Below, in pieces: positions 22,498 through 59,600 of a DNA stretch of 64,000 bases. The notes under the pieces are model-generated. The model searched no databases and was not told the origin of the DNA. It saw only the letters and a list, made by a program, of their open reading frames with translations. Each line of letters starts with the position of its first letter. Position 1 is the first letter of the stretch. Position numbers and translations under genes: made by a program. Where the stretch lies: the IMG/VR virus record IMGVR_UViG_3300013132_000048, positions 3,726 to 67,725 of that record; one strand, given 5' to 3'. The DNA is from a virus.

Positions 22498-22602
22498 TAT
22501 ATACCTATACAAAATGTTCAAAATTAAAAATTCTTCATACTTAATGAAATAGAATGTTGTACCATAATTATACAACAGGATTATTGCAAAGGATAACAAA
22601 CA

Positions 22603-31112: not shown

Positions 31113-34100
31113 TGTTAACGGTTCAAATATCCGATATTCACTGGCGAGGAATTACACGACATCAAGAATATACGGAAGCTTTTAATCGTTTATACGATAA
31201 AATAAAAGCTATTAAGCCTGATTTAATAATAAATACCGGAGATTCATTCCACACAAAGACTCAGGGTATTACGCCAGAAGTAATTGAAAAACTTACATGG
31301 ATGTTTAGGAGTTTAGATGAAATCGCTCCTACAATTACAATACTTGGAAATCATGATGGTAATCTATCCAATAATGATAGACAAGATATTGTTTCTCCAA
31401 TGTTTGATGCATTAAGATTACCAAGATCTATTTTATGCAAACAATCTTTTAGTTTTAATTTAGAAGATAAATTGCCGCAAATTAAAGGTGCATCTAAATT
31501 TAGATTTCATATCTATTCTCCCTTTGATCAAGATAATTGGGATAAAATCCAAATAGATTCAAGAAGAATAAATATTGGCTTATTTCATGGTTCTATGCTT
31601 GGCTGCGAAACAGATCAAGATTTTATGCTAATCGAAGCAGAAGCTGATCTATCATATTTTAAAAATATTGATTTCCTATTATTAGGAGATATCCATAAAC
31701 ATCAATGGATTTCTAAAAGAATGGATAAAGATGAAGTGTTAAAGCCATGGGCAGCTTATCCAGGGTCGCTGATTCAGCAAAACTTTGGAGAAATAGAATC
31801 CAAAGGATTTTTAGTATGGGATTTAAGAGAAAAAAATGATTGGGATGTTAATTTTCATCAATTAGAAAATAAAATGCCATTCATTACAATTCCTTGGATG
31901 GATAATGTTTTCGACACAATACAAAATGTTGCTGTCGAAAGAAAAGAAAATGCATTTTTACCTGGAACTAGATATCGCATAAGTTCTTCCCAGGCGCTCT
32001 CTCAAATAGAGACTAAACAATTAATAAATGAATTAAAAGAAAATAAAAAAGCCGATGAAGTTACCTTTAAATATGAATTTATTAATCGACTTGACACAAT
32101 TGATACGGATAAAGGATTATCGTTATCTAAAACAAATCTAAAAACAAATATAGATGGACTACAAGAATTGTTTCTCCAGTATCTTGAAGCTCATAAAGAG
32201 AATATTTCTCTAACAAAAGAACAATTAGCTCTTGCTCAAGATAAAATAAAAGATTATTTAAAACAGGTTAATTTACAAGAGCCAGATCTATTACATAGAA
32301 ACGTATCTTGGACGGTTAAAAATCTGGAATTCAATAACATATTCAGATATGGCGAGAAAAATTCTATAGATTTTAAAAATTTAGATGGTATTGTTGGCAT
32401 TTTTGGACCCAATAAAACAGGAAAAAGTTCAATAATAGGTTCATTGATGTATGGCTTATTTAATACTACCGATAGAGGTCCAGTTAAATCATCTTATATC
32501 ATTAATAAAAATAAAAATAATTGTTCTGTTGATGTTACATTCAATGTAGACAATACAGATTATCTTGCAAGACGACAAACTTCTAGGGTAATAAGTAAAA
32601 AACAAAAAGATGATGATAAAACAGTAACTACTTTAAATCTTTATCGTTTAGAAGATGGAAAAAAAATTGAATTAAACTCAATTACTAGAGAAGAAACAGA
32701 TAGAGAAATAAAGAAACTAATAGGAACATCAAATGATTTTCTATTGACAGCCTTATCCTCTCAAGGGGATATGAATAAATTTATCAATGAAGGCGCAACG
32801 CAAAGAAAAGCAATATTATCTAAATTTCTTAATTTAGATCTATTTGAAAAATTGCATTCTTTATGCAAAGAAGATTATTCAATAATAAATGAAAGAACTA
32901 AAGAATATAATTCTAAAGATTGGGCTTCTACATTAAATAAAACATTCGAAGAAATAGAATTTCTTGAAAAAGTAATAGAAGATCAAGAAAAAGAAATCCA
33001 AAATTCTAAAGAAATTATTGAATTGCATAAAATATGGTTTTCAAAAAACCAACAACAAATAGAAGATGTTGATCTTGCTAAATTACAAAATAATATTAAT
33101 AAATTATCTTCTGAAATTTCTTCATTAGAAACAAACGAAGAGCTTAGTTTAAAAACGTCAACATCTTTAAAACAACAAATTAAAGAACTAAAAAAAGCAA
33201 ATACAGAAATCAATATAGAAGAATTAAAAGAAAAAGCTCTTAAACTTGATGAATTGAAAAAATTATTGCTTGATACTAAACCTTCTCTCTCAAAAGAAAC
33301 ATTAATTTTAGAAAATCAAAAAAAATCTATTAAAAAACTAGAAATAGTTCCTTGTGGCGACTCGTTTCCAACATGTCATTTTATAAAAGATTCTCATGAA
33401 GATAAGAAAAATTATAAAAAACAACTAAAAGAAGTAGAAAAGATAAAATCAACTGTTCAAGAACTTGAATCTACTCTTGAGTTTCTTTTGCAAGAAAAAA
33501 TAAATGAAAGATTAAATCAATTTAATCTAAACGAGCAGAAAATAAAATCATTAGAAAATGATCTTAATTCAATTTTGTCAAAATTAGATCTAATAGCAGA
33601 TCAAAAGAGTTTTATCTCATTGAAATTAGCAGAAGATAAAGTAAAATTGCAAGAAATAAAATCACGAACAACAGAGGAAGTTCAGGAAGAGGCTGAAAAA
33701 AGACAAGAGACAGTTAGTTCGTTACAGGTTAAAATAAAATCATTAGAATCTGCTATAAAACAACAGTTGATAAAAATTGGTGCTAAGTCTGAATTCTTAG
33801 AAAAGACAAAAAAAGAATATAATGAAGGCAAGGGATTAATTGAAAAACTAAAGATTCATGATGCAATATTAAATGGGTTCAGTAAAACAGGGATACCTTC
33901 AATTGTATTAAAAACACAATTACCAACCTTAAATGCCGAGATTGAAAAAATCTTAAGTGGAGTTACTGATTTTAAAATTGTTTTAGAAATGGATGTAAAT
34001 AGCAATGCTATGGATGTTTTTATTCAAGACTCTCATTCTAAGAGAGTAATAGAATTAGCTTCTGGCATGGAAAAAATGATTTGTTCTATCGCCTTAAGAG

Positions 34101-34330
34101 TAGCATTGCTAAATATATCCAGTCTTCCCAGACCTGATATGTTTATTGTTGATGAAGGATGGGGTATATTAGACGAAGACAACATAAGTCGATGTATGGA
34201 ATTGTTTCTTTCTTTGAAAAATCATTTTAGAACAATTTTATTAATATCACATGTAAATCAAGTAAAAGAAATTGTAGATAAAATAATAGAAATTAAAAGT
34301 GATGGTTTAGAATCTCACGTAAGGATTTGA
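31112..34330 (+). CDS. Fused SbcD(Mre11/gp47)-SbcC(Rad50/gp46) recombination nuclease-ATPase
   Basis: N-terminal phosphoesterase motifs SDIH, TGDSFH, GNHD, FHG, GDIH. Then Walker A GPNKTGKS, Q-loop, coiled coil, ASGME signature, IVDEG Walker B and ISH. Confidence 0.9.
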   Translation: MLTVQISDIHWRGITRHQEYTEAFNRLYDKIKAIKPDLIINTGDSFHTKTQGITPEVIEKLTWMFRSLDEIAPTITILGNHDGNLSNNDRQDIVSPMFDALRLPRSILCKQSFSFNLEDKLPQIKGASKFRFHIYSPFDQDNWDKIQIDSRRINIGLFHGSMLGCETDQDFMLIEAEADLSYFKNIDFLLLGDIHKHQWISKRMDKDEVLKPWAAYPGSLIQQNFGEIESKGFLVWDLREKNDWDVNFHQLENKMPFITIPWMDNVFDTIQNVAVERKENAFLPGTRYRISSSQALSQIETKQLINELKENKKADEVTFKYEFINRLDTIDTDKGLSLSKTNLKTNIDGLQELFLQYLEAHKENISLTKEQLALAQDKIKDYLKQVNLQEPDLLHRNVSWTVKNLEFNNIFRYGEKNSIDFKNLDGIVGIFGPNKTGKSSIIGSLMYGLFNTTDRGPVKSSYIINKNKNNCSVDVTFNVDNTDYLARRQTSRVISKKQKDDDKTVTTLNLYRLEDGKKIELNSITREETDREIKKLIGTSNDFLLTALSSQGDMNKFINEGATQRKAILSKFLNLDLFEKLHSLCKEDYSIINERTKEYNSKDWASTLNKTFEEIEFLEKVIEDQEKEIQNSKEIIELHKIWFSKNQQQIEDVDLAKLQNNINKLSSEISSLETNEELSLKTSTSLKQQIKELKKANTEINIEELKEKALKLDELKKLLLDTKPSLSKETLILENQKKSIKKLEIVPCGDSFPTCHFIKDSHEDKKNYKKQLKEVEKIKSTVQELESTLEFLLQEKINERLNQFNLNEQKIKSLENDLNSILSKLDLIADQKSFISLKLAEDKVKLQEIKSRTTEEVQEEAEKRQETVSSLQVKIKSLESAIKQQLIKIGAKSEFLEKTKKEYNEGKGLIEKLKIHDAILNGFSKTGIPSIVLKTQLPTLNAEIEKILSGVTDFKIVLEMDVNSNAMDVFIQDSHSKRVIELASGMEKMICSIALRVALLNISSLPRPDMFIVDEGWGILDEDNISRCMELFLSLKNHFRTILLISHVNQVKEIVDKIIEIKSDGLESHVRI

Positions 34331-38829: not shown

Positions 38830-38864
38830 GTGTTTAAGATAAGGTGTCAATTTTAGAGGATTAT

Positions 38865-41800
38865 ATGAAGACATTAGAACAATTAAAAGCAGAAGGGGAA
38901 GCCCCAAGCTGGCTAACGAGCGATGCATTCCAGACTTTGAATGGCGGCTACCTTTGGAATGATGAAACTCCAAAGGCTATGTATCGCCGTGTAGCTACGA
39001 GCGTAGCCCTTTCTCTTAAGAAGCCAGAACTTGCAGATAAGTTCTTTGATATCATGTGGAAAAACTGGCTATGCCCTTCTACTCCAGTTTTATGTAACGC
39101 AGGAACAACTAGAGGATTACCTATAAGTTGCTTAACTGGAGATTCTTGGGTCAATACAAAATCCGGGGGAAAACAGATTAAAGATATCCAGATTGGAGAA
39201 CTTGTTCTTACTCACAAGGGTCGTTGGCGTAGAGTTATTTCAAAAACTTCACAACAATCTAAAGATCCAATTTATGTTCTTAAAGTTCGGACAAGAATGA
39301 CTCCTATTAAAATAACAGGGAATCATTTAGTTCTAACGAATTTAGGTTGGATACGTGTCGATGAACTTAATCCATCTAAACATTGGATTGCCGTTAATAA
39401 AGATATTGAATTTGAGGAAAAAAATCACATTATTTCATTGAAAGAATATTGTTCATATTCATATAAAGAGCACAATGGAAAAATTTGTAAAATTCAAGAA
39501 ACAAAATCAAAAAAGAAGCGAGATATCCTAAAAGAACAAATTGTATCATCTCATTCACAGCCATATGCAAATATACCTGTTGACGAAGAAGTGGCTTGGG
39601 CTCTTGGATTATGGTTTGCAGAAGGAAGCAGATCGCAGAATCATAAAAAACTAGCGACTGGCATACGAATTACGATAGGTTCAGATGAAGAACATTATGC
39701 AAAACGTTTTCTTGACATAATGAAAGAAAAATTTAATTTAAATGGAAATTATTATTTTTCCGAAAGACCAAACCCAAATAAACCTGGATATATGAATTCC
39801 TGGATCTCTGTAAATGTGAACGGAAGATTAATAGGAGAATTCTTTGATAAAGAATTTGGAATTGGCTGCAAGAATAAGCAAATTCCTGAATGGATTACTG
39901 CTTTACCAAAACCAATTTTAAAATCGTTTGTTCAAGGAGTTTTAGATGGAGATGGAAGTCGTAGTGCATCTGGAACTGATAAAATTACATTAGCAAATGG
40001 ACCAATGATATTGGGACTGTATAATTCTTTATTGAAGCTTAATATTCCTTGTTCGCTACAAATGCAGACAAAAGCATCTAAGCTTTCAAAAGATTCTTTT
40101 GTTTATACGATTGACATGTATAATGGATATGACATGTCAAAGGCAAGAAAAAGACCATCTGTAGGTATTCAATTTGAAAACAATCTTTATGCACCAATAG
40201 CAAGTTTGGTAAAAACTGATATGAAAGAAGAAGTATTTGATATTGGAGTCGAAGAAGACCATTCTTTTTCAGTGAGTGGAGTCGTTGTACACAATTGTTT
40301 TTCATCATACATGGCTGATGATACCTATGAGATCCTTGAAACCCTACAGGAAGTAGCAATGCTATCCAAGTATGGTGGTGGAACGGCTATACACGTTAAT
40401 GATGTTCGTGCTAAAGGTGCTCCAATCTCTAAGGGTGGACATTCAGATGGTGTAGTTCCATTCCTTAAAATGGCAGATAGCGTTATTCTTGGCATATCTC
40501 AAGGTTCTACCCGCAGGGGGGCGTGTGCTGCATACATTGATATTGAACATGGCGATTTTGATGAGTTTTTACAATCCCGCAGACCTACGGGAGACGTTAA
40601 CAGACAATGTCTTAATCTTCATCATGGTGTATGTGTTTCTAATGCGTTTATAGACAAGGTAAAGGCTGGAGATGTAGAAGCCCGGAGACGTTGGAAAGAG
40701 CTGATTAAGAGCCGTGTAGAGACAGGAGAACCCTATGTTTTCTTTACGGACAATGCTAATGATCAAGCGCCGCCTGTATTAAAAGAAACCGGTATTAAAC
40801 TTAAAGGTTCAAACCTTTGTGTAACGGGAGATCAATTAGTTGTAACTTCTAAAGGATTACGTAGTGTTCTTGATCTTGTCAATTCTGGAGAAGAATTAAC
40901 TTTGTTTGATGGAACTAAGACAGTAAATGCTTCTCCCATGAAGTTAATAGAAAAAAATGTCCCTGTTTATCGTATTACTACAAAAACTGGTCGAACACAT
41001 GATGTTACGTCATATCACAAAATAAAAACAACTCGTGGAATGATTGCGTGTGAAGAACTAAAAGCTGGAGATAAAATTTTTGTTCAACGTAAGGAAGGCT
41101 TGTTTGGAAATGCTCATAAACCAGAGTTAGCATTCTTACTAGGACTTTATCATGCAGACGGTACACAGACAGACAAATGTGTATATATTGATATCTGGGA
41201 AAATGATTTTAAGCTTCGTTCAGAGATAGAAGAAGCGGTAAAAAAAGTTTACACACAAGAGAATTGGCTTCAATACGATGTTAAAAATCAAACCGGCAAA
41301 ATTGTTGGCAAAAGGAAAGCAAAAATTCCAACTTTCATAAGGCAAAATACCGGTACGTCAAGCGTTCAAAAACTTCGTCTTGGGTCATCTAATTTAAAAA
41401 AATTTGGTTTTAAAAAAGGTGTAATACCAGACTGGATTTATCAAGGTGATAAAGAAACCATTTCTCAATATCTTAGAGGCTTATATATTGCAGATGGAAC
41501 AATCAATGTTTCTAAATCGTATGGAAATCCTCTATATCTTTCATTAGTTTCAATTGATCGTGATTTTCTTGGAAAAATACAAATAATTCTTTCTAATCTT
41601 GGTATTGAATCAAAAGTATATTCATTGAGAAAAGCGGGTAAAAGTTTACTTCCTGATGGGAAGGGCGGGAACAAATATTACGACACAAAAGAATGTTGGC
41701 GTTTAAATATTAGCAATAAAACCGATGCAATAAAGTTTGATAAGCTTACAGGATTTCTCACGTATAAAGGAAAATCTATTCAAGAAAGAAAATATAGAGA

Positions 41801-42845
41801 TAATACCCAAAAAAATGATGAAGTAATTTCAGTAACTTATTTGAATAATCAAGATGTGTATTGTACAACGGTTGATTCAAAAGAACATGTTTGGGTTTGT
41901 AATTCTTTTATAACTTCAAATTGTTCCGAAATCTTCCTTCCAACAGACAAGGATCATACATTCGTTTGTTGCCTATCTTCCCTTAATCTTGCAAGATGGG
42001 ATGAATGGAAAGACACGGACACGGTTCAACTATCCGTATGGTTCCTTGATGGTATAATGGAAGAGTTTATCCAGAAGGCATCCGGTCTTCGTGGTTTTGA
42101 AAGAGCTTTGAGATTTGCTACAAAATCCCGTGCTCTTGGACTTGGTGTTCTCGGTCTACACTCATACTTCCAAAAGAATATGATTGCTTTTGATAGCCTA
42201 CAAGCTTATCTCCAGAATAAGATTATATTCAAGAAGATTAGAGAAGAAGCTGAGTTAGCAACATCAGCCCTTGCTGCTGAATATGGTGAACCAGAGTGGT
42301 GTAAGGGTCATGGCAGAAGAAATGCTACCCTTATGGCTATAGCTCCTACTGTATCTAACTCCCTTATTGCTTCTAACGTATCCCAAGGTATTGAGCCATG
42401 GATTGCTAATGCATTTGCCCAAAAGAGTGCAAAAGGAACATTCGTAAGAAGAAATCCAGAACTTGAGAAGCTTCTTAAGAGCATTGGACAGGATACAGAC
42501 GAAGTTTGGGGTTCAATCCTAAAGAATGATGGCTCGGTTCAACAGTTAGAATGCTTAACCGCTGAACAGAAGGAAGTATTCCTTACCGCAAGAGAGTTAA
42601 ATCAGTTTGCCATCGTTAAGTTGGCGGCTGAAAGACAGAAGTTTGTTGATCAAGGTCAAAGCATCAATATCTTCTTCCCAGCTAACAGCGATCCAAAGTA
42701 TATCAATCAAGTTCATTTGGAAGCTGCTAATAGCGGATTAAAGAGCCTATATTATCTCCGTTCCACATCTGTTCTTAAAGCTGAACAGAACAGTAATGCG
42801 GTATATAAGAGAGAACTAACAGAATGCACTTGGTGCGAAGGATGA
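38865..42845 (+). CDS. nrdA: Class I ribonucleotide reductase alpha subunit with two inteins (mature protein ~569 aa, no ATP cone)
   Basis: Start ATG 38865 with GAGGA. STPVL..GLPIS|C, SKYGGG, QGSTRRGA, TGEPY, GSNL|CSE, CCLSSLN, AIAPT, SLYY and C-terminal CTWCEG. Confidence 0.95.
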   Translation: MKTLEQLKAEGEAPSWLTSDAFQTLNGGYLWNDETPKAMYRRVATSVALSLKKPELADKFFDIMWKNWLCPSTPVLCNAGTTRGLPISCLTGDSWVNTKSGGKQIKDIQIGELVLTHKGRWRRVISKTSQQSKDPIYVLKVRTRMTPIKITGNHLVLTNLGWIRVDELNPSKHWIAVNKDIEFEEKNHIISLKEYCSYSYKEHNGKICKIQETKSKKKRDILKEQIVSSHSQPYANIPVDEEVAWALGLWFAEGSRSQNHKKLATGIRITIGSDEEHYAKRFLDIMKEKFNLNGNYYFSERPNPNKPGYMNSWISVNVNGRLIGEFFDKEFGIGCKNKQIPEWITALPKPILKSFVQGVLDGDGSRSASGTDKITLANGPMILGLYNSLLKLNIPCSLQMQTKASKLSKDSFVYTIDMYNGYDMSKARKRPSVGIQFENNLYAPIASLVKTDMKEEVFDIGVEEDHSFSVSGVVVHNCFSSYMADDTYEILETLQEVAMLSKYGGGTAIHVNDVRAKGAPISKGGHSDGVVPFLKMADSVILGISQGSTRRGACAAYIDIEHGDFDEFLQSRRPTGDVNRQCLNLHHGVCVSNAFIDKVKAGDVEARRRWKELIKSRVETGEPYVFFTDNANDQAPPVLKETGIKLKGSNLCVTGDQLVVTSKGLRSVLDLVNSGEELTLFDGTKTVNASPMKLIEKNVPVYRITTKTGRTHDVTSYHKIKTTRGMIACEELKAGDKIFVQRKEGLFGNAHKPELAFLLGLYHADGTQTDKCVYIDIWENDFKLRSEIEEAVKKVYTQENWLQYDVKNQTGKIVGKRKAKIPTFIRQNTGTSSVQKLRLGSSNLKKFGFKKGVIPDWIYQGDKETISQYLRGLYIADGTINVSKSYGNPLYLSLVSIDRDFLGKIQIILSNLGIESKVYSLRKAGKSLLPDGKGGNKYYDTKECWRLNISNKTDAIKFDKLTGFLTYKGKSIQERKYRDNTQKNDEVISVTYLNNQDVYCTTVDSKEHVWVCNSFITSNCSEIFLPTDKDHTFVCCLSSLNLARWDEWKDTDTVQLSVWFLDGIMEEFIQKASGLRGFERALRFATKSRALGLGVLGLHSYFQKNMIAFDSLQAYLQNKIIFKKIREEAELATSALAAEYGEPEWCKGHGRRNATLMAIAPTVSNSLIASNVSQGIEPWIANAFAQKSAKGTFVRRNPELEKLLKSIGQDTDEVWGSILKNDGSVQQLECLTAEQKEVFLTARELNQFAIVKLAAERQKFVDQGQSINIFFPANSDPKYINQVHLEAANSGLKSLYYLRSTSVLKAEQNSNAVYKRELTECTWCEG
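39129..40295 (+). mobile_element. Intein 1 in NrdA (389 aa, LAGLIDADG endonuclease)
   Basis: Begins CLTGDS, block B ITGNHLVLT, LAGLIDADG motifs WALGLWFAEGS and FVQGVLDGDGS, ends VVHN followed by +1 Cys. Confidence 0.93.
40818..41921 (+). mobile_element. Intein 2 in NrdA (368 aa, LAGLIDADG endonuclease)
   Basis: Begins CVTGDQ, block B VTSYHKI, motifs FLLGLYHADGT and YLRGLYIADGT, ends FITSN followed by +1 Cys of the NLCxE motif. Confidence 0.93.
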
Positions 42846-42863
42846 AAGATAATATATATTGAT

Positions 42864-43361
42864 ATGTCAGATATTATCTTTGAAGCAAAACGTTTACAAA
42901 ATTTGGCGGGTCTTTTAATTGAAGAAACTCGAAATATTTCTTATACGGCAATTGTTTTATATAAAGATTCACATCTTAAATTAATTTCTTCTCTTGAAGA
43001 TTTAATTCCAAAAGATTGGAAAATTGTTGCTCATCATGTAACTATCAACATGAAATCATTTGCAGGAGATATAAAATTGCTAAACTCCAATCACCTAGTG
43101 GAAGTTAATTCATTTGTAATAAATGATAAAGTTTGTGCATGTGGAGTTAAAATAATAACTGGCATTATAAGTGAAAATGATAATCCGCACATAACATTGG
43201 CAATTAACAAAGCTGCTGATGCAAAAGCCAAAGATTCTAACAATAAAAAACTTTGGGAAAATGCAAAAACAATAAATTCTCTTATACTAGAAGGTAAATT
43301 AGTTGAAGTAGCTAAGGGAGAAAGTTTTTTTGCAGAAAATTATCCTACTGCTGAAACATGA
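42864..43361 (+). CDS. 2H phosphoesterase (cyclic phosphodiesterase-like)
   Basis: Two HxT motifs (HHVTI, PHITL) followed by AKDSN, as in tRNA-ligase CPD-type domains; preceded by a ~22 aa leader. Confidence 0.75.
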   Translation: MSDIIFEAKRLQNLAGLLIEETRNISYTAIVLYKDSHLKLISSLEDLIPKDWKIVAHHVTINMKSFAGDIKLLNSNHLVEVNSFVINDKVCACGVKIITGIISENDNPHITLAINKAADAKAKDSNNKKLWENAKTINSLILEGKLVEVAKGESFFAENYPTAET

Positions 43362-43370
43362 AAGGTAAAT

Positions 43371-44057
43371 ATGACAATAAGACTAATAGACCTAAGAGCC
43401 CAACAAACAAATCCATTTCCCAGAAAAAAGAGTTCTGATGGAAAGGTAATAAACACATCCAAGGTTGTCAAAGGTAAGACTTTGGTTCGTGATCCAAAAT
43501 CAATAACCGGTATTGGTATTCACCAAACAGCCTGCGTATTTGGACCATTAAATGATAGAGAAAAGGCTTATAAACGTGCTAGCGGTATACCAGCACATGT
43601 TACAGCCTTTAGAGATGGTGTATATGTAGCTGCGGCACCATTAGATTGGTTTCTATATCATGGAAATGAGCTTAACTCATTTAGTCTTGGATTAGAGTGC
43701 GAAGGACATTATCCAGGCTTACTAGACGACCCTAAGACGCCCATTAGAGAAGATATTAAGACAACCTGGGGCGGCACCCCAACACCATTAGATGATAAGG
43801 CTATAGAGACGTTTAGAGCCGCCCTTAAGTGGTTGGTAGATAATGGTAGAGCCGCCGGTATGCCAATAGAATATATCTGGGCACATAGACAATCAAATGG
43901 TCAAAAGCCTTCAGATCCTGGTATGGGTATATGGCAAAAGGTTGTATTGGAATATGGTGTTCCTGTATTGGGATTAAAGACACAACCAGAGAAGGCGTGG
44001 CGAGATGGTAAACCAATCCCAACAAATTGGGAAACTGGTGGTGTAGGCAAGTATTGA
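43371..44057 (+). CDS. N-acetylmuramoyl-L-alanine amidase (Amidase_2-type, candidate endolysin)
   Basis: GIGIHQTA, PAH, LYHGN...SLGLECEG and IWAHRQ...KPSDPG zinc-amidase motifs; AAGGT RBS. Confidence 0.85.
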   Translation: MTIRLIDLRAQQTNPFPRKKSSDGKVINTSKVVKGKTLVRDPKSITGIGIHQTACVFGPLNDREKAYKRASGIPAHVTAFRDGVYVAAAPLDWFLYHGNELNSFSLGLECEGHYPGLLDDPKTPIREDIKTTWGGTPTPLDDKAIETFRAALKWLVDNGRAAGMPIEYIWAHRQSNGQKPSDPGMGIWQKVVLEYGVPVLGLKTQPEKAWRDGKPIPTNWETGGVGKY

Positions 44058-44060
44058 TTT

Positions 44061-44390
44061 ATGGATCCAATAATATTTTTGGTTATTGCAAGTTATTTTA
44101 TAGTATTTTCAATGGGCTATATGATAGCTAAATCAAATAATCAATCTGTGTTAAATTTGAACAACGTTCAACAAGATAAACCCGTTAGCTTCTTGGCTAA
44201 AACTGTTAAAGAAGAAAAAACTGGAAATAAAAAAATAGAAATTAATGAACGGAAGTTTATAACTGAAATAAAAACTGATACTCTAGAGAAAAAGTTTAAT
44301 GAATTAGGTAAGAAAATTGTTGCACAAGATGAATCTTTAAGTGCAAATGTTTCAAAACTTGCTTCATTAAAAAAATCTAAAGAGGGTTGA
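44061..44390 (+). CDS. Small single-pass membrane protein
   Basis: N-terminal hydrophobic helix IIFLVIASYFIVFSMGYMIA, then a charged soluble tail ending in an amphipathic-looking helix. Confidence 0.7.
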   Translation: MDPIIFLVIASYFIVFSMGYMIAKSNNQSVLNLNNVQQDKPVSFLAKTVKEEKTGNKKIEINERKFITEIKTDTLEKKFNELGKKIVAQDESLSANVSKLASLKKSKEG

Positions 44391-44446
44391 ACGTGGGATT
44401 TAAAATACCAGAAATAGAAGAAAAGAAACAAAAGAGGAGTAAAAAA

Positions 44447-45460
44447 ATGGCTAAGTTAGGTAAAGGCTTAGATGTTGGTACATCATTCGTTGTATTAGCA
44501 TCTGAACATGATAAAGGTGCAGTAGAATATAAAGATTTTCGTGATGCATTCTATGTAATCAAACCAGCAACTCCAATCGCTGCAAAGATGATTGAAAAGG
44601 GTCTTGCTGGTAAAACATTTGTAAAAGATGCAGATGGAACCTTTGTTATTCTTGGTAAAGATGCTATTGAAAAGGCTGTAGAACGTAATGATAGCGCAAA
44701 GCGTCCTATGTTCCGTGGCGTAGTATCATCTAAAGAAAAGGATGCTCGTAGAGTCCTTTCCTATATCCTTAAGGAAGTAGCAGGCGAACCAGCAGAACAA
44801 GGCGAAAAACTTGTATTCTGTATTCCAGCCCAGCCTATCGATCAAGAAGATGAAGAGTTTGACGTTGGATATCATGAAGACGTTGTAAAGAAAGTTCTTT
44901 CTGATCTCGGGTATGCTCCAAGAGCTATCAATGAGGCAGAAGCACTTTGTTATTCAGAGCTTGAAAAAGATGATTATACCGGCGTTGCCTTGTCATGGGG
45001 TGCTGGTATGGTTAACGTCTGCGTAATGCTTAACGGCGAACCTGTACTAACATTCTCTACTACCAAGAGTGGTGACTGGATTGATCGTATGGCTGCTGTT
45101 GCTACTGGACAAACAGATAGCGTAGTTCAAGCTGAGAAAGAGGGCGGCGTATTTACAATTGGAGAACCTAATGATAATCAGGTTCTTGCTGCTGTATCTT
45201 CGTATTACGAACGTCTTATTGATTATACCACAAAGCAGTTAGCGGCAGCTCTTGCAGATCATAAGGATCTTCCAAAGTTTAAGGATCCTCTACCAGTAGT
45301 AGTAGGAGGAGGAACTACCCAGGCTAAAGGCTTTGTTCCTGTCTTTGCAAAGAAGCTAGAAGAGAATGGTTTTCCAGTTGCCGTCAAAGAAGTAAGACAC
45401 GCTTCTGATCCCCTTCACGCTGTTGCTAGGGGATGCCTTATTGCTAGTCAAATACTTTGA
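44447..45460 (+). CDS. Actin-like ATPase (volactin-like family)
   Basis: Start ATG 44447 with strong GAGGAG RBS (44434-44439). Phosphate-1 GLDVGTS, connect-1 INEAEA, phosphate-2 SWGAGMVN, GDWID, adenosine VVGGGT and connect-2 AVARG. Confidence 0.88.
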   Translation: MAKLGKGLDVGTSFVVLASEHDKGAVEYKDFRDAFYVIKPATPIAAKMIEKGLAGKTFVKDADGTFVILGKDAIEKAVERNDSAKRPMFRGVVSSKEKDARRVLSYILKEVAGEPAEQGEKLVFCIPAQPIDQEDEEFDVGYHEDVVKKVLSDLGYAPRAINEAEALCYSELEKDDYTGVALSWGAGMVNVCVMLNGEPVLTFSTTKSGDWIDRMAAVATGQTDSVVQAEKEGGVFTIGEPNDNQVLAAVSSYYERLIDYTTKQLAAALADHKDLPKFKDPLPVVVGGGTTQAKGFVPVFAKKLEENGFPVAVKEVRHASDPLHAVARGCLIASQIL

Positions 45461-45480
45461 CATAATCTAATGTATGAAAT

Positions 45481-45506
45481 AAAGGACTGCGAAAGCAGTC
45501 CTTTTT
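45481..45506 (+). terminator. Intrinsic terminator closing the actin-like gene unit
   Basis: Perfect 10-bp stem AAAGGACTGC-GAAA-GCAGTCCTTT with a GNRA loop and T-run. Confidence 0.88.
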
Positions 45507-46626: not shown

Positions 46627-47403
46627 ATGAGATTTATTGTTGATTTATCATTAAGATTACTGACACTCGTTTATATCACGTTTTTAGCCTCCTGCAATCA
46701 AAATCAAAGAACTCTAAACCATATTGGTACCCCGGAGTTAAACCTTGCTTTAGAATCTACAATAGCTTTTATTGCAGAAAGAAATTCTTCAGATATAAGA
46801 AGGACCGTTGATATTACTTGTTCTGGATTTTTCATCGATGAACGACTTATTTTAAGTGCTTTACACTGTTTTCAAAGTACAAGAGTCTTTATTCTTCCTA
46901 CTGGAGAATTGGTACAGATACCAACAATCTTAGATCCTACGGGAAGAGAATTTCAATTTGTTTATCGGAATCAAATTGATCAAAGTTCTCTTATCATTCT
47001 TAATGAAGAAATTAATATTGCAAGTGTTGTTGCGGTTGATTTAGAAATGGATTTAGCGTTATTATCTCTTACAGAAAACACAAGATCTAGCAATGCATAT
47101 TTATCGGTTTCTGATTTTGAACCACAGATAGTAGATACTGTGTATACAATAGGACATCCAATTGAGTTAGCTTGGTCTATTTCCAATGGAATTATTTCTA
47201 GAATATTGTCAGATAGAAATGTAATACAAACAAATATTACAATTGTTGGTGGATATTCTGGTGGTCCGTTACTAAATATTAGAGGCGAAGTTATTGGCGT
47301 TGCTGATTCTTATATCAGAAATGTCTCACAAGTTTCTTTCTTTATCAGCAGGCAAAGAATTCAAAATTTCTTACAAAGTTATCGTTCACATGCATCAAGA
47401 TAA
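46627..47403 (+). CDS. Trypsin-like (S1) serine protease, predicted lipoprotein
   Basis: Triad motifs SALHC, DLALL and GYSGGPL; hydrophobic signal ending in lipobox LAS-C; GGAG RBS. Confidence 0.85.
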   Translation: MRFIVDLSLRLLTLVYITFLASCNQNQRTLNHIGTPELNLALESTIAFIAERNSSDIRRTVDITCSGFFIDERLILSALHCFQSTRVFILPTGELVQIPTILDPTGREFQFVYRNQIDQSSLIILNEEINIASVVAVDLEMDLALLSLTENTRSSNAYLSVSDFEPQIVDTVYTIGHPIELAWSISNGIISRILSDRNVIQTNITIVGGYSGGPLLNIRGEVIGVADSYIRNVSQVSFFISRQRIQNFLQSYRSHASR

Positions 47404-48017: not shown

Positions 48018-48275
48018 ATGAAGACATTACACATTCACGCTCAATATGATCAGCACCTTGAAGCACGCATCTCTGGAACTAGAGAAGCCTTAGAGGCACT
48101 CCAGAAAGCCATTAATCAACTTATATCTTCTGACAAATCAGAGAAAGAAGTTATTATTGAAATGGAATGTCGTGATGGCGAATCATATGAACTTACGTTG
48201 CAAATGAAATCAGATTTAGAAAGTGATAATCTCCCTTATATTTCATGGGGGAAATGGGATGGAGAAAGCGTATGA
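48018..48275 (+). CDS. Hypothetical protein
   Basis: 85 aa ORF with AAGGA RBS; ISGTREALEALQKAI...DGESYEL segment. Confidence 0.6.
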   Translation: MKTLHIHAQYDQHLEARISGTREALEALQKAINQLISSDKSEKEVIIEMECRDGESYELTLQMKSDLESDNLPYISWGKWDGESV

Positions 48276-50035
48276 AAGAAAAACATCAAAACAAAGTAGA
48301 ACTCCTAGGACATTATGGAGGGGATTTAAGTCATGCTCAATCAGCTTGGACAAGCACCGTTAGAAATATTGATGAAGCCAAGATGAATAGAATGCCGGCT
48401 CTATTAAAAATGCTTGCAGAAAATCATCACGAAACTCCATTTGAGAAATCCAGCCTTCATTTCCTCGTAACAACCGAGGTTGCATCGCATGTGCAAATTC
48501 TAAAACATAGAATTGGCGTATCTTGTCTTGCCGGGGATACTAAGATTTATATTCCCGTTCCTGGTGGTGGAGTAAAGAAAATAACATTGGAAGAACTTTA
48601 TGAGCGTCAAGAAGGCGGTATCTTGTCTAAAAGCAAGAACCAAAAGTCGTACAAAAGGCATGACCCAAGAAAACTTTCCGTTCGCACAAGAGAAGACGGA
48701 TCATCCTTGGTTACTAAATCAAAAATAAATAAAGTCTTTTATAATGGAATGCGAGACGTATTCGAATTTACTACCTCAAGCGGAAAGTCAATAAGAGCCA
48801 CATTCGATCATAAATTTGCCACTCCTGATGGGTGGCAAGAGATTGGTAAATATCTAGGCGTTGAACTAACGGGAAGTTTGGCTACGATGAAGCATCCCGG
48901 ACCAGTAGCTACTAATGGAGTTAGAATAGAAGTTCCGGAGTATCCTTATACGTTCAGAAGCTGGTGGGAACAGTATGAAAACAAATATACTAGAATGGAA
49001 GTTGCATCATTAACTGGTATGTCATATCCTAATGTTAAAAAGTGGGGTTATATCTTTAACATTACATTCAAACTCGACAACAATAAGGATTTCAAGAAAG
49101 ACATGATTCCTTGGAACTATAAAAAAACTGGCTATACAGTTAACAGGAAAAAGCATGGTTTGAGTTCAAATATCAACAAAAACCTTTCATATAAGTCTTG
49201 GCGTGCTAGTGTAGGAAATTGGACACGCCAGCAACTTCCTACTCTGTTAGAGAAATTTCATCATACATGTCAAGCACAGCTAGGAGAATGTTCAAGAGAC
49301 TTTGTGTGTCATCACGTAGTTCCGGTTTCGGTTGATCCATCAATAGCAACAAACATAGAAAATCTAGCTTTGGTATGCTCTTCTTGTCATAAATTTATTC
49401 ATAAAACAACAGCCAACGAAATATCATATGCCGAATCTTTCCGGAAACAGGATATGAAAACAGTATTTTCTAATCGAAAGCCTAAGACCGGTCGAAAGCT
49501 AGCTTTCGACTATGAAGATATTATCAAAGTTAAATACTGCGGTTTACAGAAAGTATATGACTTGGAAGTTGATAAAACCCATTGTTACGTTGCCAATGGT
49601 TTTCTTGTACATAACTGTAATGGCGAAAGCGCACGCTATAAGGAGCTTAAAGACGACAAATACTACGTCCCCCAGGATTGGGACGACCAGGAAGTAAACC
49701 TTTATATAGAGCATATGGAGGGCAGTCTTAAGAGCTACCATGAGTGTCTAAATCGTCTTGTAGCCAAGGGTGTCTCTCGCAAGAGAGCCAAAGAGAGTGC
49801 AAGACTATATTTGCCATATGGTAATCAATTAACGGCTGATGTTATGTTTAACTTCCGTTCATTTGCTCATTTCCTTGGGTTAAGATATTCTACTCATGCT
49901 CAAGTTGAGATTAGGGAGATCGCCAGACAGATGCTTGAACAGGTGGTTAATATAGAAGGGGATCCTTTCCATCATACGCTACGTGCATTTAAGTTAGTAG
50001 ATGAAAATGGTAAGATAAGAGAACCTTTTGAATGA
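48272..50035 (+). CDS. thyX: Flavin-dependent thymidylate synthase with intein
   Basis: Start ATG 48272 (GGAG RBS, ATGA overlap). HETPFE, QILKHRIGVS|CNGESARY, ESARLYLP, NFRSFAHFLGLR and HAQVEIR motifs. Confidence 0.92.
   Translation: MKEKHQNKVELLGHYGGDLSHAQSAWTSTVRNIDEAKMNRMPALLKMLAENHHETPFEKSSLHFLVTTEVASHVQILKHRIGVSCLAGDTKIYIPVPGGGVKKITLEELYERQEGGILSKSKNQKSYKRHDPRKLSVRTREDGSSLVTKSKINKVFYNGMRDVFEFTTSSGKSIRATFDHKFATPDGWQEIGKYLGVELTGSLATMKHPGPVATNGVRIEVPEYPYTFRSWWEQYENKYTRMEVASLTGMSYPNVKKWGYIFNITFKLDNNKDFKKDMIPWNYKKTGYTVNRKKHGLSSNINKNLSYKSWRASVGNWTRQQLPTLLEKFHHTCQAQLGECSRDFVCHHVVPVSVDPSIATNIENLALVCSSCHKFIHKTTANEISYAESFRKQDMKTVFSNRKPKTGRKLAFDYEDIIKVKYCGLQKVYDLEVDKTHCYVANGFLVHNCNGESARYKELKDDKYYVPQDWDDQEVNLYIEHMEGSLKSYHECLNRLVAKGVSRKRAKESARLYLPYGNQLTADVMFNFRSFAHFLGLRYSTHAQVEIREIARQMLEQVVNIEGDPFHHTLRAFKLVDENGKIREPFE
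48524..49615 (+). mobile_element. Intein in ThyX (364 aa) carrying an HNH endonuclease
   Basis: Begins CLAGDT, block B ATFDHKF, HNH CQAQLGEC...HHVVP...NIENLALVCSSCHKFIH, ends VYDLEV...FLVHN followed by +1 Cys. Confidence 0.92.
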
Positions 50036-52373: not shown

Positions 52374-52697
52374 ATGAAAGCAAGAAGAAAACCTGGTCAA
52401 GAAAAACTCGCCAAGGATAAATGCGAAATATGTGGCGGCAAAGAAGCTTTACATATTCATCATATTATTCCTCAATGTGATTCTAGAAGTACCAATGACA
52501 ATAGTAATCTTGCTATAGTTTGTGCTACAGATCATTCCCTAATACACGAGGGAATTATTACAATAATTGGAGTGTATAAAACTACTGGTGGTAGAAAACT
52601 AATGTGGTTTCGTCATGGGGAAGAGCCACCATTAGAAAAAGAATATTGGCTTATAAAAGAAAATCCATTAGTTATTTGTAAAAAACATAATAACTAA
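52374..52697 (+). CDS. Small HNH endonuclease
   Basis: CEIC...HIHHIIP...NLAIVCATDHSLIH. Confidence 0.8.
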   Translation: MKARRKPGQEKLAKDKCEICGGKEALHIHHIIPQCDSRSTNDNSNLAIVCATDHSLIHEGIITIIGVYKTTGGRKLMWFRHGEEPPLEKEYWLIKENPLVICKKHNN

Positions 52698-55363: not shown

Positions 55364-56608
55364 TTATTTTATTTTTTCTTCTTTAAGGAAGAAATTTATA
55401 TCCTCAAATCCTTTGATCTTAGTTGATCCTAATTTACATAATTTTGGAATCGCATCATAAGCATCTTGATGAACATCAAGAATAAGAGCATCATGCAAAA
55501 CAAACATAGGTACAATGATATCTTGTAGCTGTGCCGAATAAATCTTTTTTATAATCTTTGTAAAACCTTGCAATGCAACATCTACTGCGGTTGATTGAAT
55601 ATAATAATTCAACAAGACATATGGTTTTACATCAGGGCATGTAATGTATCTACCATAATAATTCTGTATATGCTTATTTCCAGAATTTATAAATTGTTCT
55701 TTTAAGAAAGTTCTTGTTTTTTCGATTCCAAAATAATCTTGGATCGAAGAAATGAATTCTTCTGGATCTGATATCTTTTTTTCTAATTGCCTATAAAGTG
55801 TTTCTTCATTAGCTCCATAAAGCTGAGATATCAGGGCTATTTTTACTGTATTTCTATCTAGGTTTTCTAGACCCATCTCTTCTTTAAATTTTGCATAGAT
55901 ATCTTGTGGCAAACCTTTTGCCCTATCTAAATTAGATATTGCCATTAAAACTCTTGGTTCTAATGAAGAAAAATCTAAATAAACTATTTTACCTTCTGTT
56001 CCAAATCTAGATTCTAAAACATCCCTATAATCTTTTTTTAATAAAAGAATATTAGGACCAGATAAAATCGATAGTCTGCCGGTAATGGTATCTAATGTAG
56101 AATATTGTGGTGATTTGCCATAGCCCTCATTTGGTAGAAATGATTTAATCAATTCTTTTTGTCCAGGGGAAGCTATTTCTAAATATTTAAAACAATTATT
56201 TGCATTTATTCTTGCTTGTTTTAATTTCTTGAATAAGAACTCATACTCTTCATGAGTTTTAAGATATTTTAAATCTTTACTTTCAATTTGATTAATAATG
56301 TTTGAAACAAATGCTTTCGTTGTTTCTAAAAATTCATCTTTTGGAATTATTTGTTTCCAGGGTACAGAATTAATATTTAATTTTTCGTTTAATAATGCTC
56401 TATAGACATTAATCCATTTATCTTTTGGAAAAGATGCTATTTCTATTCCAATTAATTTGACTAATAGTTTTAATTGTTCATTATCAATATACAACATGTC
56501 TTCTATGGAACTTGGAGATGTATTAGATAATAATCTTTGTTGATCGATAAAGATATTGGATGCTTTTGTGCCAAATATATTTTTATCAAAGTAATATGAA
56601 TATGCCAT
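55364..56608 (-). CDS. Minimal family A DNA polymerase domain
   Basis: TITGRLS, motif A LDFSSLEPR, motif B RNTVKIALISQLYG, NYYIQSTAVD and motif C VLHDA; only 414 aa. Confidence 0.8.
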   Translation of the reverse strand: MAYSYYFDKNIFGTKASNIFIDQQRLLSNTSPSSIEDMLYIDNEQLKLLVKLIGIEIASFPKDKWINVYRALLNEKLNINSVPWKQIIPKDEFLETTKAFVSNIINQIESKDLKYLKTHEEYEFLFKKLKQARINANNCFKYLEIASPGQKELIKSFLPNEGYGKSPQYSTLDTITGRLSILSGPNILLLKKDYRDVLESRFGTEGKIVYLDFSSLEPRVLMAISNLDRAKGLPQDIYAKFKEEMGLENLDRNTVKIALISQLYGANEETLYRQLEKKISDPEEFISSIQDYFGIEKTRTFLKEQFINSGNKHIQNYYGRYITCPDVKPYVLLNYYIQSTAVDVALQGFTKIIKKIYSAQLQDIIVPMFVLHDALILDVHQDAYDAIPKLCKLGSTKIKGFEDINFFLKEEKIK

Positions 56609-56653: not shown

Positions 56654-59600
56654 TCATTCAGTAGGTGGTGTTGCACTTGCTCCAGTACCATTTTGTTGTT
56701 CCAACGCTCTTTCAACAACTGTAATTTGATTTCTAATATTTGCCGTGGTGTTATAATATTGACCATAAGCATCAAATGGAGCAAATTTAATATCTGTTGT
56801 AAAATTACCTGGAGATATCTTATGTGTTAATCCTGTAACTCCATAGATATTATCTAAACTTGTTCCCGTTTGAAAATCAATAAAAAACTGTTGTGCATAT
56901 TGAATAAGTGGGCAACCAAGTGTTGTTAAATTTAATTCAGCCGGGATTACTTGCATTGGCAATCCTCCTGGTTGTTCACCGTTTGGTTGTAATTGTGTAT
57001 TCCTAGGTGATCTTAACATATTTACTGTAGATAATTGTGAATTTTGCATGGAAGACAAATTAGCTTGTTTTACAGCCGTTCCTTGAATGCCATATATGAT
57101 ATATGGTACAGTTTGATATAAGAAATTTTTCAATGCTCTAGAACCCCCTGCAACACGAATTAAATTTTGTTCACTTAATAACGCATCGATACTGGTATTG
57201 TTCACTGTACCAGTAGGAGATATTATTTCTAATAAGCCAAGATCTAATGCTCTTTGCAAATTTGCTCTAGCATCAGCTTCTTGATTTGCCTCTACGGGAG
57301 ATGAATTATTTTCATCTGGTGCAGTTGTGTTATTTGATCTTCCAAGAGCTGCAATTTCATTGTCTCTAGTTGCACGAAGTATTTGACCCTGAGACTCATA
57401 ACAATTTGCTACACGATCATATACATGTAATCTTAATATGCTTTTAGCAGTAGATTCATCTATTTCATCCCCGTCTCTTGTACCAATTCTTTGCGGAATG
57501 CATTCAACATATATTTCTATTTGAGGCATTTGAAATGTTCCATCAGGTGTAACATTAGAAAGAATTGATTCCATTCTACCTTGCAATGCAGGAACCTCAT
57601 ATCTAGACTCTGTTCTTCTTACGCCATCTTCAATGTTTTCTCTATAAAATGATCCCTCGCTATCCCATAATCCGTATGATGGTGCCGCTGGATCATCAAT
57701 AATAGTTGATTGCAAAAAGGTAAAAAATTCTCTAATATTCATAGCTACAGAATTACTAGCTGCCTCTAGTCTGTTTCTTGCTAATTCTTGTGAAAAGAAG
57801 TCTAAATCTACTCTAAAACTAGCAACATTTATTTTTCTTGCATATCCTGCTTTAGAGTTAAAAGGATAAAAAAGCATTTGTACTTCGTCATATTTTTTAG
57901 TATTTGCTAATGGTTGACCTACGAAATGCAGTAATAGAGTAGCCAAGCTAACTGTTCCCTGTACGGGATCTGTTTGATAACGATTCCTGTATTGTGTAAG
58001 TCTGGTTGAATTTCTTGGTCCTCCAAGTACTCTTCCATCAACACTGGCTGCTCTTGTTCCACCAGCAGGATTTTGATCATTTTCACTGTCAGGTCTTAGA
58101 AATGCATCAGGTGTATTAATTGACATTTTTCTTATTTTTTCTTCAATGCCCTCTATTATAGTAGTTCTTATTTCCTCTATAATTGTATTTCCATCGGTTC
58201 TTTCTTCCCTATTTGTTGCTGATATATTATTGTAGAAATTTTCCAAAGCATCTCTTAGCTCTCTAGTTGCTGAATTTACGTTATTATCGTTTAAACGTCT
58301 ATGTAAATCTCTATATTCTCTTGTTAATTCTGATGTCATTCGAAAATTAGAAGTTGCTGTCATTGCTGCATCTAAAGCTTGAATTCCACGTATTTCTCTT
58401 GTACTAGTCCCAGAAGTCTCAGAGCCAAAAACACGATCTCTTAAACGCGCTATATTTGCTTGCAAATCTCTTAATTGTCTAATGCTATTATTAACACTAT
58501 CAGCAGTGATACCTGAATCTATTAATTCTGTGCTTAAATCCGAACCACCACGCATAGCAAGTTCTAAATTTATATCTACATTTCCACCTTCGGTAAAGCT
58601 AAAAGAAGAATTAATTATTCCATATCTTTCTTTTACTCGCATACCGTTGATTAAATCTCCATAAGGATTATTTGGAGCAACATTTGTGACTAAAAAATTT
58701 TCTGGATGAATCCATCCATATTCTATTTCTATTTCATTTGCACTATATAAATCTGCTTTAACGAAATCAGCAATATCATTTAATCTAGAACGATCATGAA
58801 GAACCATAGCTAATTTGGCAGTTTTAAAACTGGCTAATCCAGTACTAGGTCTAACTTCTATTGTTAGATCTTTAATTGTTAAAAATGGTCTAAATTTATC
58901 TAATACTGGATTTGCTCTTAATTGTGGATCGTCTATTTCATCTGCATTAACTAATGTTTGTGGGGATGTAAAAATTTCCATTCCCGCAATTGTATATTGT
59001 TCTGATTGAGGAAATTGCGAGGCTAAAGAACCAGTGATTGTGTTAGCTGACAGCATTTGATAAGTTGGAGTTCCGTTAGCTACAGATTGAGCGCCTAATA
59101 AAAATTTAATCAAACTTAATCCTTGAACTCTATTAGTAGTAGTGTCAATAACAGGTCTTGGAAGAAAGAATTTTATTTCTGCATATGGTAGGGCTCGTGA
59201 AAATTCTATATTAGAAATACCGTTCATAAAAACACATACAGCATTTGTATTTCTAACTGTTGGAGAGATTCTGGTAGAATTTGAAAGTATTACTGATAGT
59301 CCAGGATTATCTTTTGTTGGATTAGATAAATTTTGATTTATTATATCAGATTCTAAAATCGCTCTATCTCCTTCAAAATTAGAAGGACCAACAATCGCAG
59401 CATATGTTTCTTCCACCATAGATTCTAAAACATTTAAAAATGAATTTGGATCAGTGCTTGGTCCATAATATATTTCTAAATAATTTTTAATTGCATTTTT
59501 TTGCTCTTCGGTTGCATCAGTTGTAAATGAATTAATTGTAGAAATCAATTCATATGTCAAAGGACATCCTGATGTTGTATCAATAAGTTGATTTAAAATA

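Follow-up and report, generated by a model that had tools for sequence, protein, structure and literature searches.

The locus at 43371-45506 of a 64,000-nucleotide stretch of viral DNA (the window) raises the question of what a phage might do with an actin encoded next to a membrane protein and a cell-wall amidase. The window corresponds to bases 3726-67725 of the linear IMG/VR virus record IMGVR_UViG_3300013132_000048 (67,725 bases in total; completeness 18% according to CheckV). Three genes on the plus strand follow one another here, encoding an Amidase_2 peptidoglycan amidase of 228 amino acids (aa) (43371-44057), a membrane protein of 109 aa (44061-44390; the partner in what follows) and an actin of 337 aa (44447-45460). 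An interpretation made from the letters alone (the sequence-only reading) had taken all three as one membrane-tethered, volactin-like system that positions replication or assembly, or reshapes the host or its wall together with the amidase. The analysis reported here points to a smaller unit. The conserved unit comprises two genes, partner and actin, not three, and we consider it moderately probable that these two form a membrane-anchored actin filament system linked to the replication phase of the phage.

As regards the actin itself, the protein matches the Pfam family Volactin (PF25216) along its full length, with residues 6-333 aligned to positions 3-320 of the 321-position profile (E 6.3e-63; 213.6 bits against a gathering score of 35; 213.2 bits in a genome-wide profile search). 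By contrast, the scores for Salactin (22.1 bits) and MreB_Mbl (16 bits against 27) lie below the cut-offs, and no ParM or FtsA family of Pfam was matched at E <= 0.1, so that the profile search proposed by the sequence-only reading upholds the resemblance to volactin over MreB, ParM and FtsA that it had drawn from a string of motifs. That reading had also described the actin-fold motifs as intact, and an alignment of 70 rows agrees: the phosphate-1, phosphate-2 and adenosine motifs are invariant (D9/G11/T12, S183/G185/G187/N190, G209/D210/D213 and G288/G289), and T290 is conserved in at least 90% of the rows. An AlphaFold2 (AF2) model built from this alignment has the ASKHA fold (predicted local distance difference test, pLDDT, 93; predicted template modelling score, pTM, 0.90). 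Its top Foldseek matches are the BeeR filament 8r2n, MamK 5ljv and many MreB entries (TM-scores 0.63-0.72; sequence identity 15-18%); crenactin, FtsA, PilM, Hsp70, EutJ and ParM rank lower, with ParM 1mwm in 50th place. A sequence search of PDB returned nothing significant (a single match, E 0.33). These comparisons bear on the alternative that the protein is a non-polymerising ASKHA ATPase, an enzyme or a chaperone held at the membrane, in favour of which it can be said that polymerisation is not provable from sequence alone. However, the nearest folds are those of filament formers, with Hsp70 and EutJ further down the ranking, and the founding member of the family, volactin of Haloferax volcanii (VolA, HVO_2015), assembles into dynamic filaments in living cells and influences their shape, according to its description (PMC10869688). 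A non-polymerising ATPase is accordingly regarded as very unlikely.

The Volactin family is a large one: at E <= 0.001 it has 999 representatives after clustering at 50% identity, 297 of them at E <= 1e-30. Relatives of the phage actin are encoded on 361 viral contigs. A quick IQ-TREE search (69 rows, two Bryobacterales MreB proteins as outgroup), with support from the Shimodaira-Hasegawa-like approximate likelihood ratio test (SH-aLRT) only and with several unnamed representatives on long branches, unites the 19 phage-clade rows in one group with short internal branches (support 96). The archaeal clade (12 rows, 100) and the bacterial clade (18 rows, 99) group with two megaphage proteins (97), apart from the phage clade. 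Profile and tree thus place the phage actin inside the Volactin Pfam family and outside the archaeal volactin clade, and the likeness seen by the sequence-only reading holds for family membership but not for a grouping with the archaeal volactins. The phage actin resembles VolA in its full-length PF25216 match and in being encoded beside a membrane protein, but differs from it in sequence (~35% identity), in clade, in its carriers, which are probably viruses of bacteria, and in its setting among replication genes.

Several members of the family show other elaborations. In two metagenome proteins of ~700 aa, P0121 and P0135, a Volactin-family actin is broken up by inteins where its motifs are most conserved: P0121 has the insertion ahead of GDW(V/I)D, P0135 at the phosphate-2 loop (Intein_splicing and LAGLIDADG_3 in Pfam), and about a dozen further two-stretch matches look similar. 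Among cellular-looking fusions, P0176 carries an N-terminal ParB-type helix-turn-helix (HTH) domain (27.8 bits), for which P0142 scores below the cut-off (21.1 bits), P0171 carries a C-terminal Wzz/GNVR/ParA-like BY-kinase module, and P0126 represents tandem double actins. No N-terminal transmembrane (TM) anchor fused to the actin was seen among the 26 long family members inspected.

The second question is whether the membrane protein belongs with the actin. It was addressed in 80 viral loci, the best 80 of the 361 contigs (72-92% identity to the actin). With the window partner as query, tblastn detected a relative in 46 of them (28-55% identity), and a scan for open reading frames (ORFs) found one of 97-137 aa with an N-terminal hydrophobic helix that meets or overlaps the start of the actin gene in nearly all loci. 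A hidden Markov model (HMM) of 44 partners matched directly upstream of the actin and co-directionally in 79 of the 80, the sole miss (L078) being a locus in which the actin is cut at the contig end. Clustering by blastp gave a similar count (78/80), the next commonest real neighbour occurring in 32/80. The linkage of the two genes across related phages, which the sequence-only reading had named as a check on its proposal, is therefore present.

The partner contains one hydrophobic helix (residues 4-22; mean Kyte-Doolittle value 2.3). In the alignment of 44 family members, an N-terminal helix with an LGYxxGRxD motif is followed by a variable linker and a conserved C-terminal block (approximately residues 58-107; consensus I.IDD.KFVT.I.T..LEKK...LG......DDI...VSKLAQLKK.K), the mean majority fraction being 0.39 in the helix, 0.29 in the linker and 0.57 in the block. 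In 43 of the 44, more lysine and arginine residues follow the TM helix than precede it (median length of the N-terminal flank, 3 residues), and by the positive-inside rule the C-terminus should lie in the cytoplasm, on the same side as the actin. Distances among partners correlate with those among actins (Mantel r 0.77, a value that none of 2000 permutations reached); this shows shared history or co-inheritance, not co-evolution as such, and the partner diverges approximately 3.2 times faster than the actin. In the ESM Atlas, the partner has only unnamed viral clusters as matches (scores <=0.86), and the model of the partner alone is poorly structured (pLDDT 0.56), which fits a protein that folds upon binding.

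It might be argued instead that the locus is a lysis cassette, in which the amidase is the endolysin, the 109-aa protein a holin or spanin and the actin merely a downstream gene. Lysis genes are typically laid out in this way, with a small membrane protein encoded right after the endolysin (here at a distance of 3 nt), and the partner's C-terminus is highly charged, like that of many holins. However, the membrane protein tracks the actin and not the amidase in 79 of the 80 loci, whereas the amidase is near the actin in only one; the conserved part of the partner is the cytoplasmic C-terminal block, predicted to bind actin (see below); and neither Pfam nor the PHROGs hold a family that matches the partner, whether holin, spanin or DNA-binding domain. 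A lysis cassette is thus highly improbable, and the refuting case that the sequence-only reading had set for itself, that the membrane protein is simply a holin or spanin, does not apply on this evidence.

A predicted complex of the two proteins, modelled from the actin with its 70-row alignment and residues 40-109 of the partner with the 44-row alignment, bears on the same point. The model's own confidence in the interface, expressed as ipSAE, was 0.80 (0.81, 0.78 and 0.80 in the individual runs), against 0.00 for the best of three controls; the mark for this score is reached by 116 of 157 solved complexes and by 2 of 215 mismatched pairs, a calibration that is rough only, because custom alignments were used here. 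The runs share at least 83% of their contacts, with a partner pLDDT of at least 69. The contacts come from partner residues 64-107, and the interface holds six of the eight (nearly) invariant C-terminal residues (L82, G83, D90, K99, L100 and K104), with I61 and D62 outside it. Partner residues 85-88 are predicted to pair with actin residues 25-29, in the beta2-beta3 hairpin, and residues 93-104 to lie against actin 169-177, 196-198 and 321-336, segments that the AF2 model, by its secondary structure, assigns to the hinge helix, a hairpin of subdomain IIA and the C-terminal helix. The modelling supports binding of the actin by the C-terminal block, and both the complex of TM-protein tail and actin and the wider proposal that the membrane protein is the actin's partner fare well on it and on the 79 linked loci.

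The predicted site invites comparison with plasmid segregation. The C-terminal helix of ParR binds the groove between subdomains IA and IIA of ParM at the filament end, and longitudinal contacts within the filament use the same region. The elements contacted in the phage actin include the equivalent hinge helix, IIA hairpin and C-terminal helix, so that the partner helix would occupy the IA/IIA groove and hold filament ends. The filaments of H. volcanii volactin touch the membrane by their tips (PMC10869688), and this contact matches the predicted end-type site on the phage actin. The resemblance to ParM/ParR ends there: the phage actin has no Pfam ParM match and its fold is far from 1mwm in rank, no centromere was found, and the partner is membrane-bound.

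These differences also weigh on the alternative of a ParMRC/AlpACS-like system that segregates a plasmid-like phage genome, with the partner as adaptor. An adaptor gene upstream of an actin gene is the layout of ParR-ParM and of AlpA-AlpC; in the Corynebacterium glutamicum prophage CGP3, the phage actin AlpC is bound by AlpA, encoded by a co-transcribed upstream gene, and these early genes are needed for efficient phage replication; as a DNA-binding adaptor, AlpA links the phage DNA with the AlpC filaments (PMC4446434). The ParB-type HTH domain found in some cellular family members, such as P0176, points in the same direction. On the other hand, AlpA binds DNA, whereas the phage partner is a predicted membrane anchor with no DNA-binding domain detected; the repeats around the cassette are two-copy and chance-like, with no centromere-like repeats among them; the actin belongs to a different subfamily; and the carriers have large genomes of lytic type, such as the T4-like G004. 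We consider segregation of this kind hardly more probable than a lysis cassette.

The amidase shows no such linkage. It belongs to Pfam Amidase_2 (E 4.6e-8; 33.9 bits against a cut-off of 26), and neither a TM helix nor a signal peptide was seen in it. Searched by tblastn, the amidase turned up within 5 kb of the actin in one of the 80 viral loci (L004), at the locus edge and ~4.7 kb upstream, and no homologue of it was found in the complete, cassette-bearing genome G004 at E <= 1e-4, although both actin and partner were recovered in that run. The loci of the closest relatives (L002-L009; actin identity 89-92%) are arranged as amidase ... p347 - protease ... thyX ... partner - actin, whereas in the window the partner-actin pair stands between the amidase and p347. 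From this difference in gene order, the adjacency of amidase and pair in the window is read as a local rearrangement. The DNA homology of the cassette extends from 44232, in the middle of the partner gene, to 45460-45474. The junction between actin and p347 is bridged in sequencing runs X3 (501 nt, no differences) and X4, neither of which is a likely source run, and the junction between amidase and partner is bridged by at least 31 letters in X2 alone, a possible source run, while contigs of X4 and X5 reach 26. One contig of X4 joins 42844 to 43367 and thereby skips a gene for a 165-aa protein (42864-43361); a related strain therefore has the large subunit of ribonucleotide reductase (RNR) directly followed by the amidase. 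The amidase is most likely this phage's endolysin.

The alternative that all three genes form a wall-remodelling system, in which amidase, membrane protein and actin cut or reshape the host wall and the filaments steer the amidase from inside, draws on the packed, co-directional arrangement in the window and also on the cellular relatives of the actin. A scan of species genomes gave 136 such relatives, the best 80 of which were kept. Five of these, at 68-76% identity, lie on short contigs of metagenome-assembled genomes (MAGs) of scattered taxonomy and are probably mis-binned phage DNA, because four of the five carry the phage partner. The other 75, at 33-38% identity, comprise 12 archaeal and 63 bacterial proteins, the latter mostly from Bryobacterales and other Acidobacteriota, with a few Alphaproteobacteria. 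In 59 of the 63 bacterial loci (within L087-L161, e.g., L119:1844-2971), a single-pass membrane protein of one Amidase_2 family is encoded directly upstream of the actin, so that a coupling of actin, membrane and amidase does exist in this family. This bacterial partner has 380-400 aa, an N-terminal DPxxRLRYLR motif, which would face the cytoplasm, one TM helix (KD19 >= 1.4 in 53/59) and an Amidase_2 domain (Pfam matches in all four of the 59 that were scanned, E 1.2e-17 to 1.4e-14). The operon thus resembles the window in its actin family, in the membrane partner directly upstream and in the Amidase_2 gene that precedes the pair in the window. However, membrane partner and amidase are one protein in Acidobacteriota, whereas the phage amidase appears soluble and is not conserved beside the pair. 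A specific relationship between the window amidase and the amidase of the bacterial partner was tried and rejected (blastp E 0.15; hhalign probability 0.4%), as was homology of the phage partner with the bacterial TM-amidase (hhalign 0.2%). Given also the rarity of the amidase near the actin, the failure to find a homologue of it in G004, the adjacency by rearrangement and the cassette's place among replication genes elsewhere, the wall-remodelling alternative is improbable, and the amidase does not stand as the third component that the sequence-only reading had made of it. In Bryobacterales, a true MreB (489 bits) is encoded in addition to the volactin-like protein by the genomes that carry the latter, and no description of an operon of this TM-Amidase_2 protein and a volactin-like actin was found in the literature searched.

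The archaeal relatives come from Halobacteriales, Thermoplasmatota, Methanobacteriota and one unlabelled genome, and a co-directional protein with 3-4 TM helices is encoded adjacent to the actin in all 12 loci, a DUF7139 protein in the two that were scanned. In H. volcanii, the CdpA-like HVO_2016 is encoded next to volactin HVO_2015 (PMC12126565). The DUF7139 neighbour is a multi-pass protein, whereas the phage partner is a 100-aa single-pass protein, analogous and with no detectable homology; the C-terminal blocks look alike by eye, but a homology of the two was rejected (hhalign probability 2.3%). Thus, by sequence comparison, the theme of an actin with an envelope protein is common to the branches of the family, and the parts are not. 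The volactin-like proteins L101, L102, L143, L093 and L099, from MAGs labelled Halobacteriales, Thermoplasmata or 'bacterium', are separated by branch lengths of 0-0.02, which suggests inconsistent MAG labels or very recent sharing. No mention of DUF7139, PF25216 or PF23600 was found in the freely readable literature searched.

What the pair might be for is best approached through the genomes that carry it, which were compared by blastp (ORFs of at least 100 aa; E <= 1e-5; query coverage of 50% or more). The nearest complete relative among those examined, G003 (297,894 bases, with terminal repeats), matches 22 of the 45 window ORFs at a median identity of 36.8%, with the actin at the top (79.6%). 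G004 and G005 each match three of the 45, namely the actin (74% and 72%), the partner (31% and 30%) and UvdE; between G003 and either of them, 16 of 285 ORFs match, again with the actin at the top (71% and 70%, medians ~29-30%). G004 and G005 are themselves related, with a median identity of 67% over 124/180 ORFs. A split family-B polymerase, rIIA/rIIB, UvsX, clamp loader, ligase and PhoH mark G004 as T4-like, whereas the window phage has a family-A polymerase. The few shared ORFs and the different polymerases indicate that the pair is carried by at least two unrelated jumbo-phage backbones, and in this comparison the actin is the most conserved protein common to them. Such conservation would reflect either horizontal movement of the actin or a constraint far stronger than that on anything else in these genomes, and the 30% identity of the partner argues that the split is not recent. 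In all backgrounds examined, the neighbours of the pair are replication, recombination and nucleotide-metabolism genes: RNR and ThyX in the window, the clamp loader in G004, and elsewhere gp32, RecA and dUTPase upstream and FEN and DnaB downstream. In both backbones, a gene for a trypsin-like protease of phrog_9683 comes a short distance after the actin gene (window 46627-47403; G004 L172:3217-3954), and in G004 a subtilase follows it; tblastn finds no direct similarity between the window and G004 proteases, and their shared position may be chance.

This setting favours the positioning of replication or assembly over a reshaping of the host, a role that we infer. The competing idea is a host takeover, in which the anchored actin would interfere with the host's envelope cytoskeleton or replace it, for instance by blocking division or enlarging the cell. 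In its favour are the effect of volactin on the shape of H. volcanii cells (PMC10869688), the coupling of all three branches of the family to envelope proteins and the failure to find a DNA-binding element in the module. However, a role tied to replication accounts at least equally well for the replication genes that surround the pair in several backbones, and with an identity of only 15-18% to MreB or MamK the phage actin is unlikely to co-polymerise with actins of the host. We consider a takeover unlikely, though less so than a wall-remodelling system.

The preferred reading, a two-gene membrane-anchored actin system, can be set out as follows. The N-terminal helix of the partner would insert into the cytoplasmic membrane of the host, leaving approximately 85 C-terminal residues in the cytoplasm, of which the last ~45, which appear disordered alone, would bind the phage actin. 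One segment would add a strand to the beta2-beta3 hairpin of actin subdomain IA, and the terminal amphipathic helix (SKLAxLKK) would pack on the hinge helix, the subdomain-IIA hairpin and the C-terminal helix of the actin. If the actin binds ATP and polymerises, and the partner binds it, the membrane would hold the filaments, most likely at the filament ends. The module would be expressed alongside the replication genes and may give phage DNA replication or assembly its spatial order. What the analysis shows is the family, the intact motifs and fold, the extreme conservation of the actin and its near-universal pairing, an actin of 72-92% identity being preceded in the surveyed loci by a TM partner with a conserved C-terminal block, for which a complex is predicted; that the actin polymerises, how the partner lies in the membrane, that filaments are anchored by their ends and what the module does are what we infer. 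Several points count against this reading. The megaphage relatives LR745208 and LR756511 (33-38% identity) have no membrane-protein neighbour within ~1.8 kb, and the pairing is therefore not universal among phage members of the family. No cargo-binding element was found in the module in the form of a DNA-binding domain or centromere repeats. The interface score expresses the confidence of the very model that built it, and the placement in the IA/IIA groove is put together from residue lists and the secondary structure of a separate model. Finally, the independent support for the junction between amidase and partner is weak, although this leaves the partner-actin pair untouched.

It is also tempting to go further. 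Known phage cytoskeletons comprise the tubulins PhuZ and TubZ and one DNA-tethering actin, AlpC. Like the PhuZ spindle of nucleus-forming jumbo phages, the system described here would be a cytomotive filament encoded by a jumbo phage for intracellular organisation, but PhuZ is a tubulin with no membrane adaptor and the putative filament former here is an actin; neither chimallin nor PhuZ families appeared in non-exhaustive scans of 37 window ORFs and 77 G004 ORFs. A bolder and tentative version, to which we give distinctly less credence than to the two-gene system as such, holds that the pair is a self-contained cassette, anchored at the membrane by filament ends, that has moved between unrelated lineages, and that its actin, which is under eukaryote-like constraint, gives phage replication or assembly its order at the membrane of the host, much as the PhuZ spindle would do with tubulin. 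On this version, the Volactin family as a whole would be defined by coupling of its filaments to an envelope protein, CdpA-like in archaea, a TM-amidase in bacteria and a small anchor in phages. A membrane-anchored phage actin with its own adaptor, if confirmed, would represent a third design of phage cytoskeleton, and relatives in 361 viral contigs attest to its abundance. An actin identity of 70-80% between genomes that share 3/45 or 16/285 ORFs points to many interaction constraints. The pair is small (109 + 337 aa) and hence directly testable in a model bacterium, and it offers a handle on how filaments of the volactin family attach to membranes, which the H. volcanii work leaves open. No description of a phage actin of this family or of its membrane partner was found in the freely readable literature; what this window contributes is the amidase adjacency with its explanation by rearrangement, the top rank of the actin in genome-wide conservation and the comparison of two unrelated backbones.

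The expression signals of the locus largely agree with the sequence-only reading, which had described three packed, co-directional genes that end at a GNRA terminator. The gap between the amidase stop and the partner gene is 3 nt, and an intrinsic-terminator-like hairpin with a 10-bp stem, a GAAA loop and a T-run (45481-45504) closes the unit; six terminator-like sites were found, against 2.3 +/- 1.8 in shuffles. The actin frame opens at TTG 44387, 20 codons upstream of ATG 44447, and the public gene call starts at GTG 44393 (P0001, 355 aa), but the relatives support a start at ATG 44447, as does the Shine-Dalgarno sequence AAGAGGAG (44434-44441), 5 nt before it. This Shine-Dalgarno sequence had been called the strongest in the window. 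It is strong, being among the five of 45 genes with a consensus match of at least 5 letters, but not uniquely so, since the RNR small subunit has a 6-mer. Likewise, the CGT- and GCT-rich codon usage noted earlier is real (CGT and CGC make up 64% of 11 arginine codons, and GCT 54% of 39 alanine codons; GC content 0.42 against ~0.31 for the window) but not peculiar to the actin gene, as UvdE (87%) and the RNR small subunit (55%) share it. No PHROG family was matched by any of the three proteins.

The remainder of the window (GC ~31%; no tRNA genes found) carries genes for a baseplate wedge and for fibre-like Laminin_G_3 proteins, after which come the genes of replication and nucleotide metabolism: primase, an SbcCD-like fusion, FEN, DnaB, the small and large RNR subunits and ThyX, as well as UvdE, a tRNA nucleotidyltransferase and a family-A polymerase fragment. 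From the size and terminal repeats of G003, the window is read as a fragment of a jumbo myovirus-like phage. Its DNA occurs in lake and freshwater metagenomes (24 runs listed, none of them of RNA); the phage is an uncultured freshwater jumbo phage, and the viruses that carry the actin-partner pair probably infect bacteria. Inteins interrupt two of the nucleotide-metabolism genes: the RNR large subunit (38844-42845) contains two (Intein_splicing, LAGLIDADG_3, Hint), and ThyX (48245-50035) contains one with an HNH endonuclease, which is missing from the thyX of the closest relatives, contiguous across window positions 48522/49619. The SbcCD-like fusion (31112-34330) is a single ORF of 1072 aa that joins an SbcD-like Metallophos nuclease domain to an SbcC-like AAA_23 ATPase domain. 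On the minus strand, an ORF of 414 aa (55364-56608) matches the C-terminal part of family-A DNA polymerase alone (profile positions 109-353), and the ORF of 1043 aa before it (56654-59785, also minus) has no family match; the two may represent a split or highly diverged polymerase. Mobile-nuclease genes are numerous in the window (24655-25752, 28490-28963, 20845-22599 on the minus strand and 52374-52697) and encode two proteins with a TnsA-like endonuclease domain, a homing endonuclease of 584 aa (DUF7487, phrog_3339) and an HNH endonuclease that stands alone.

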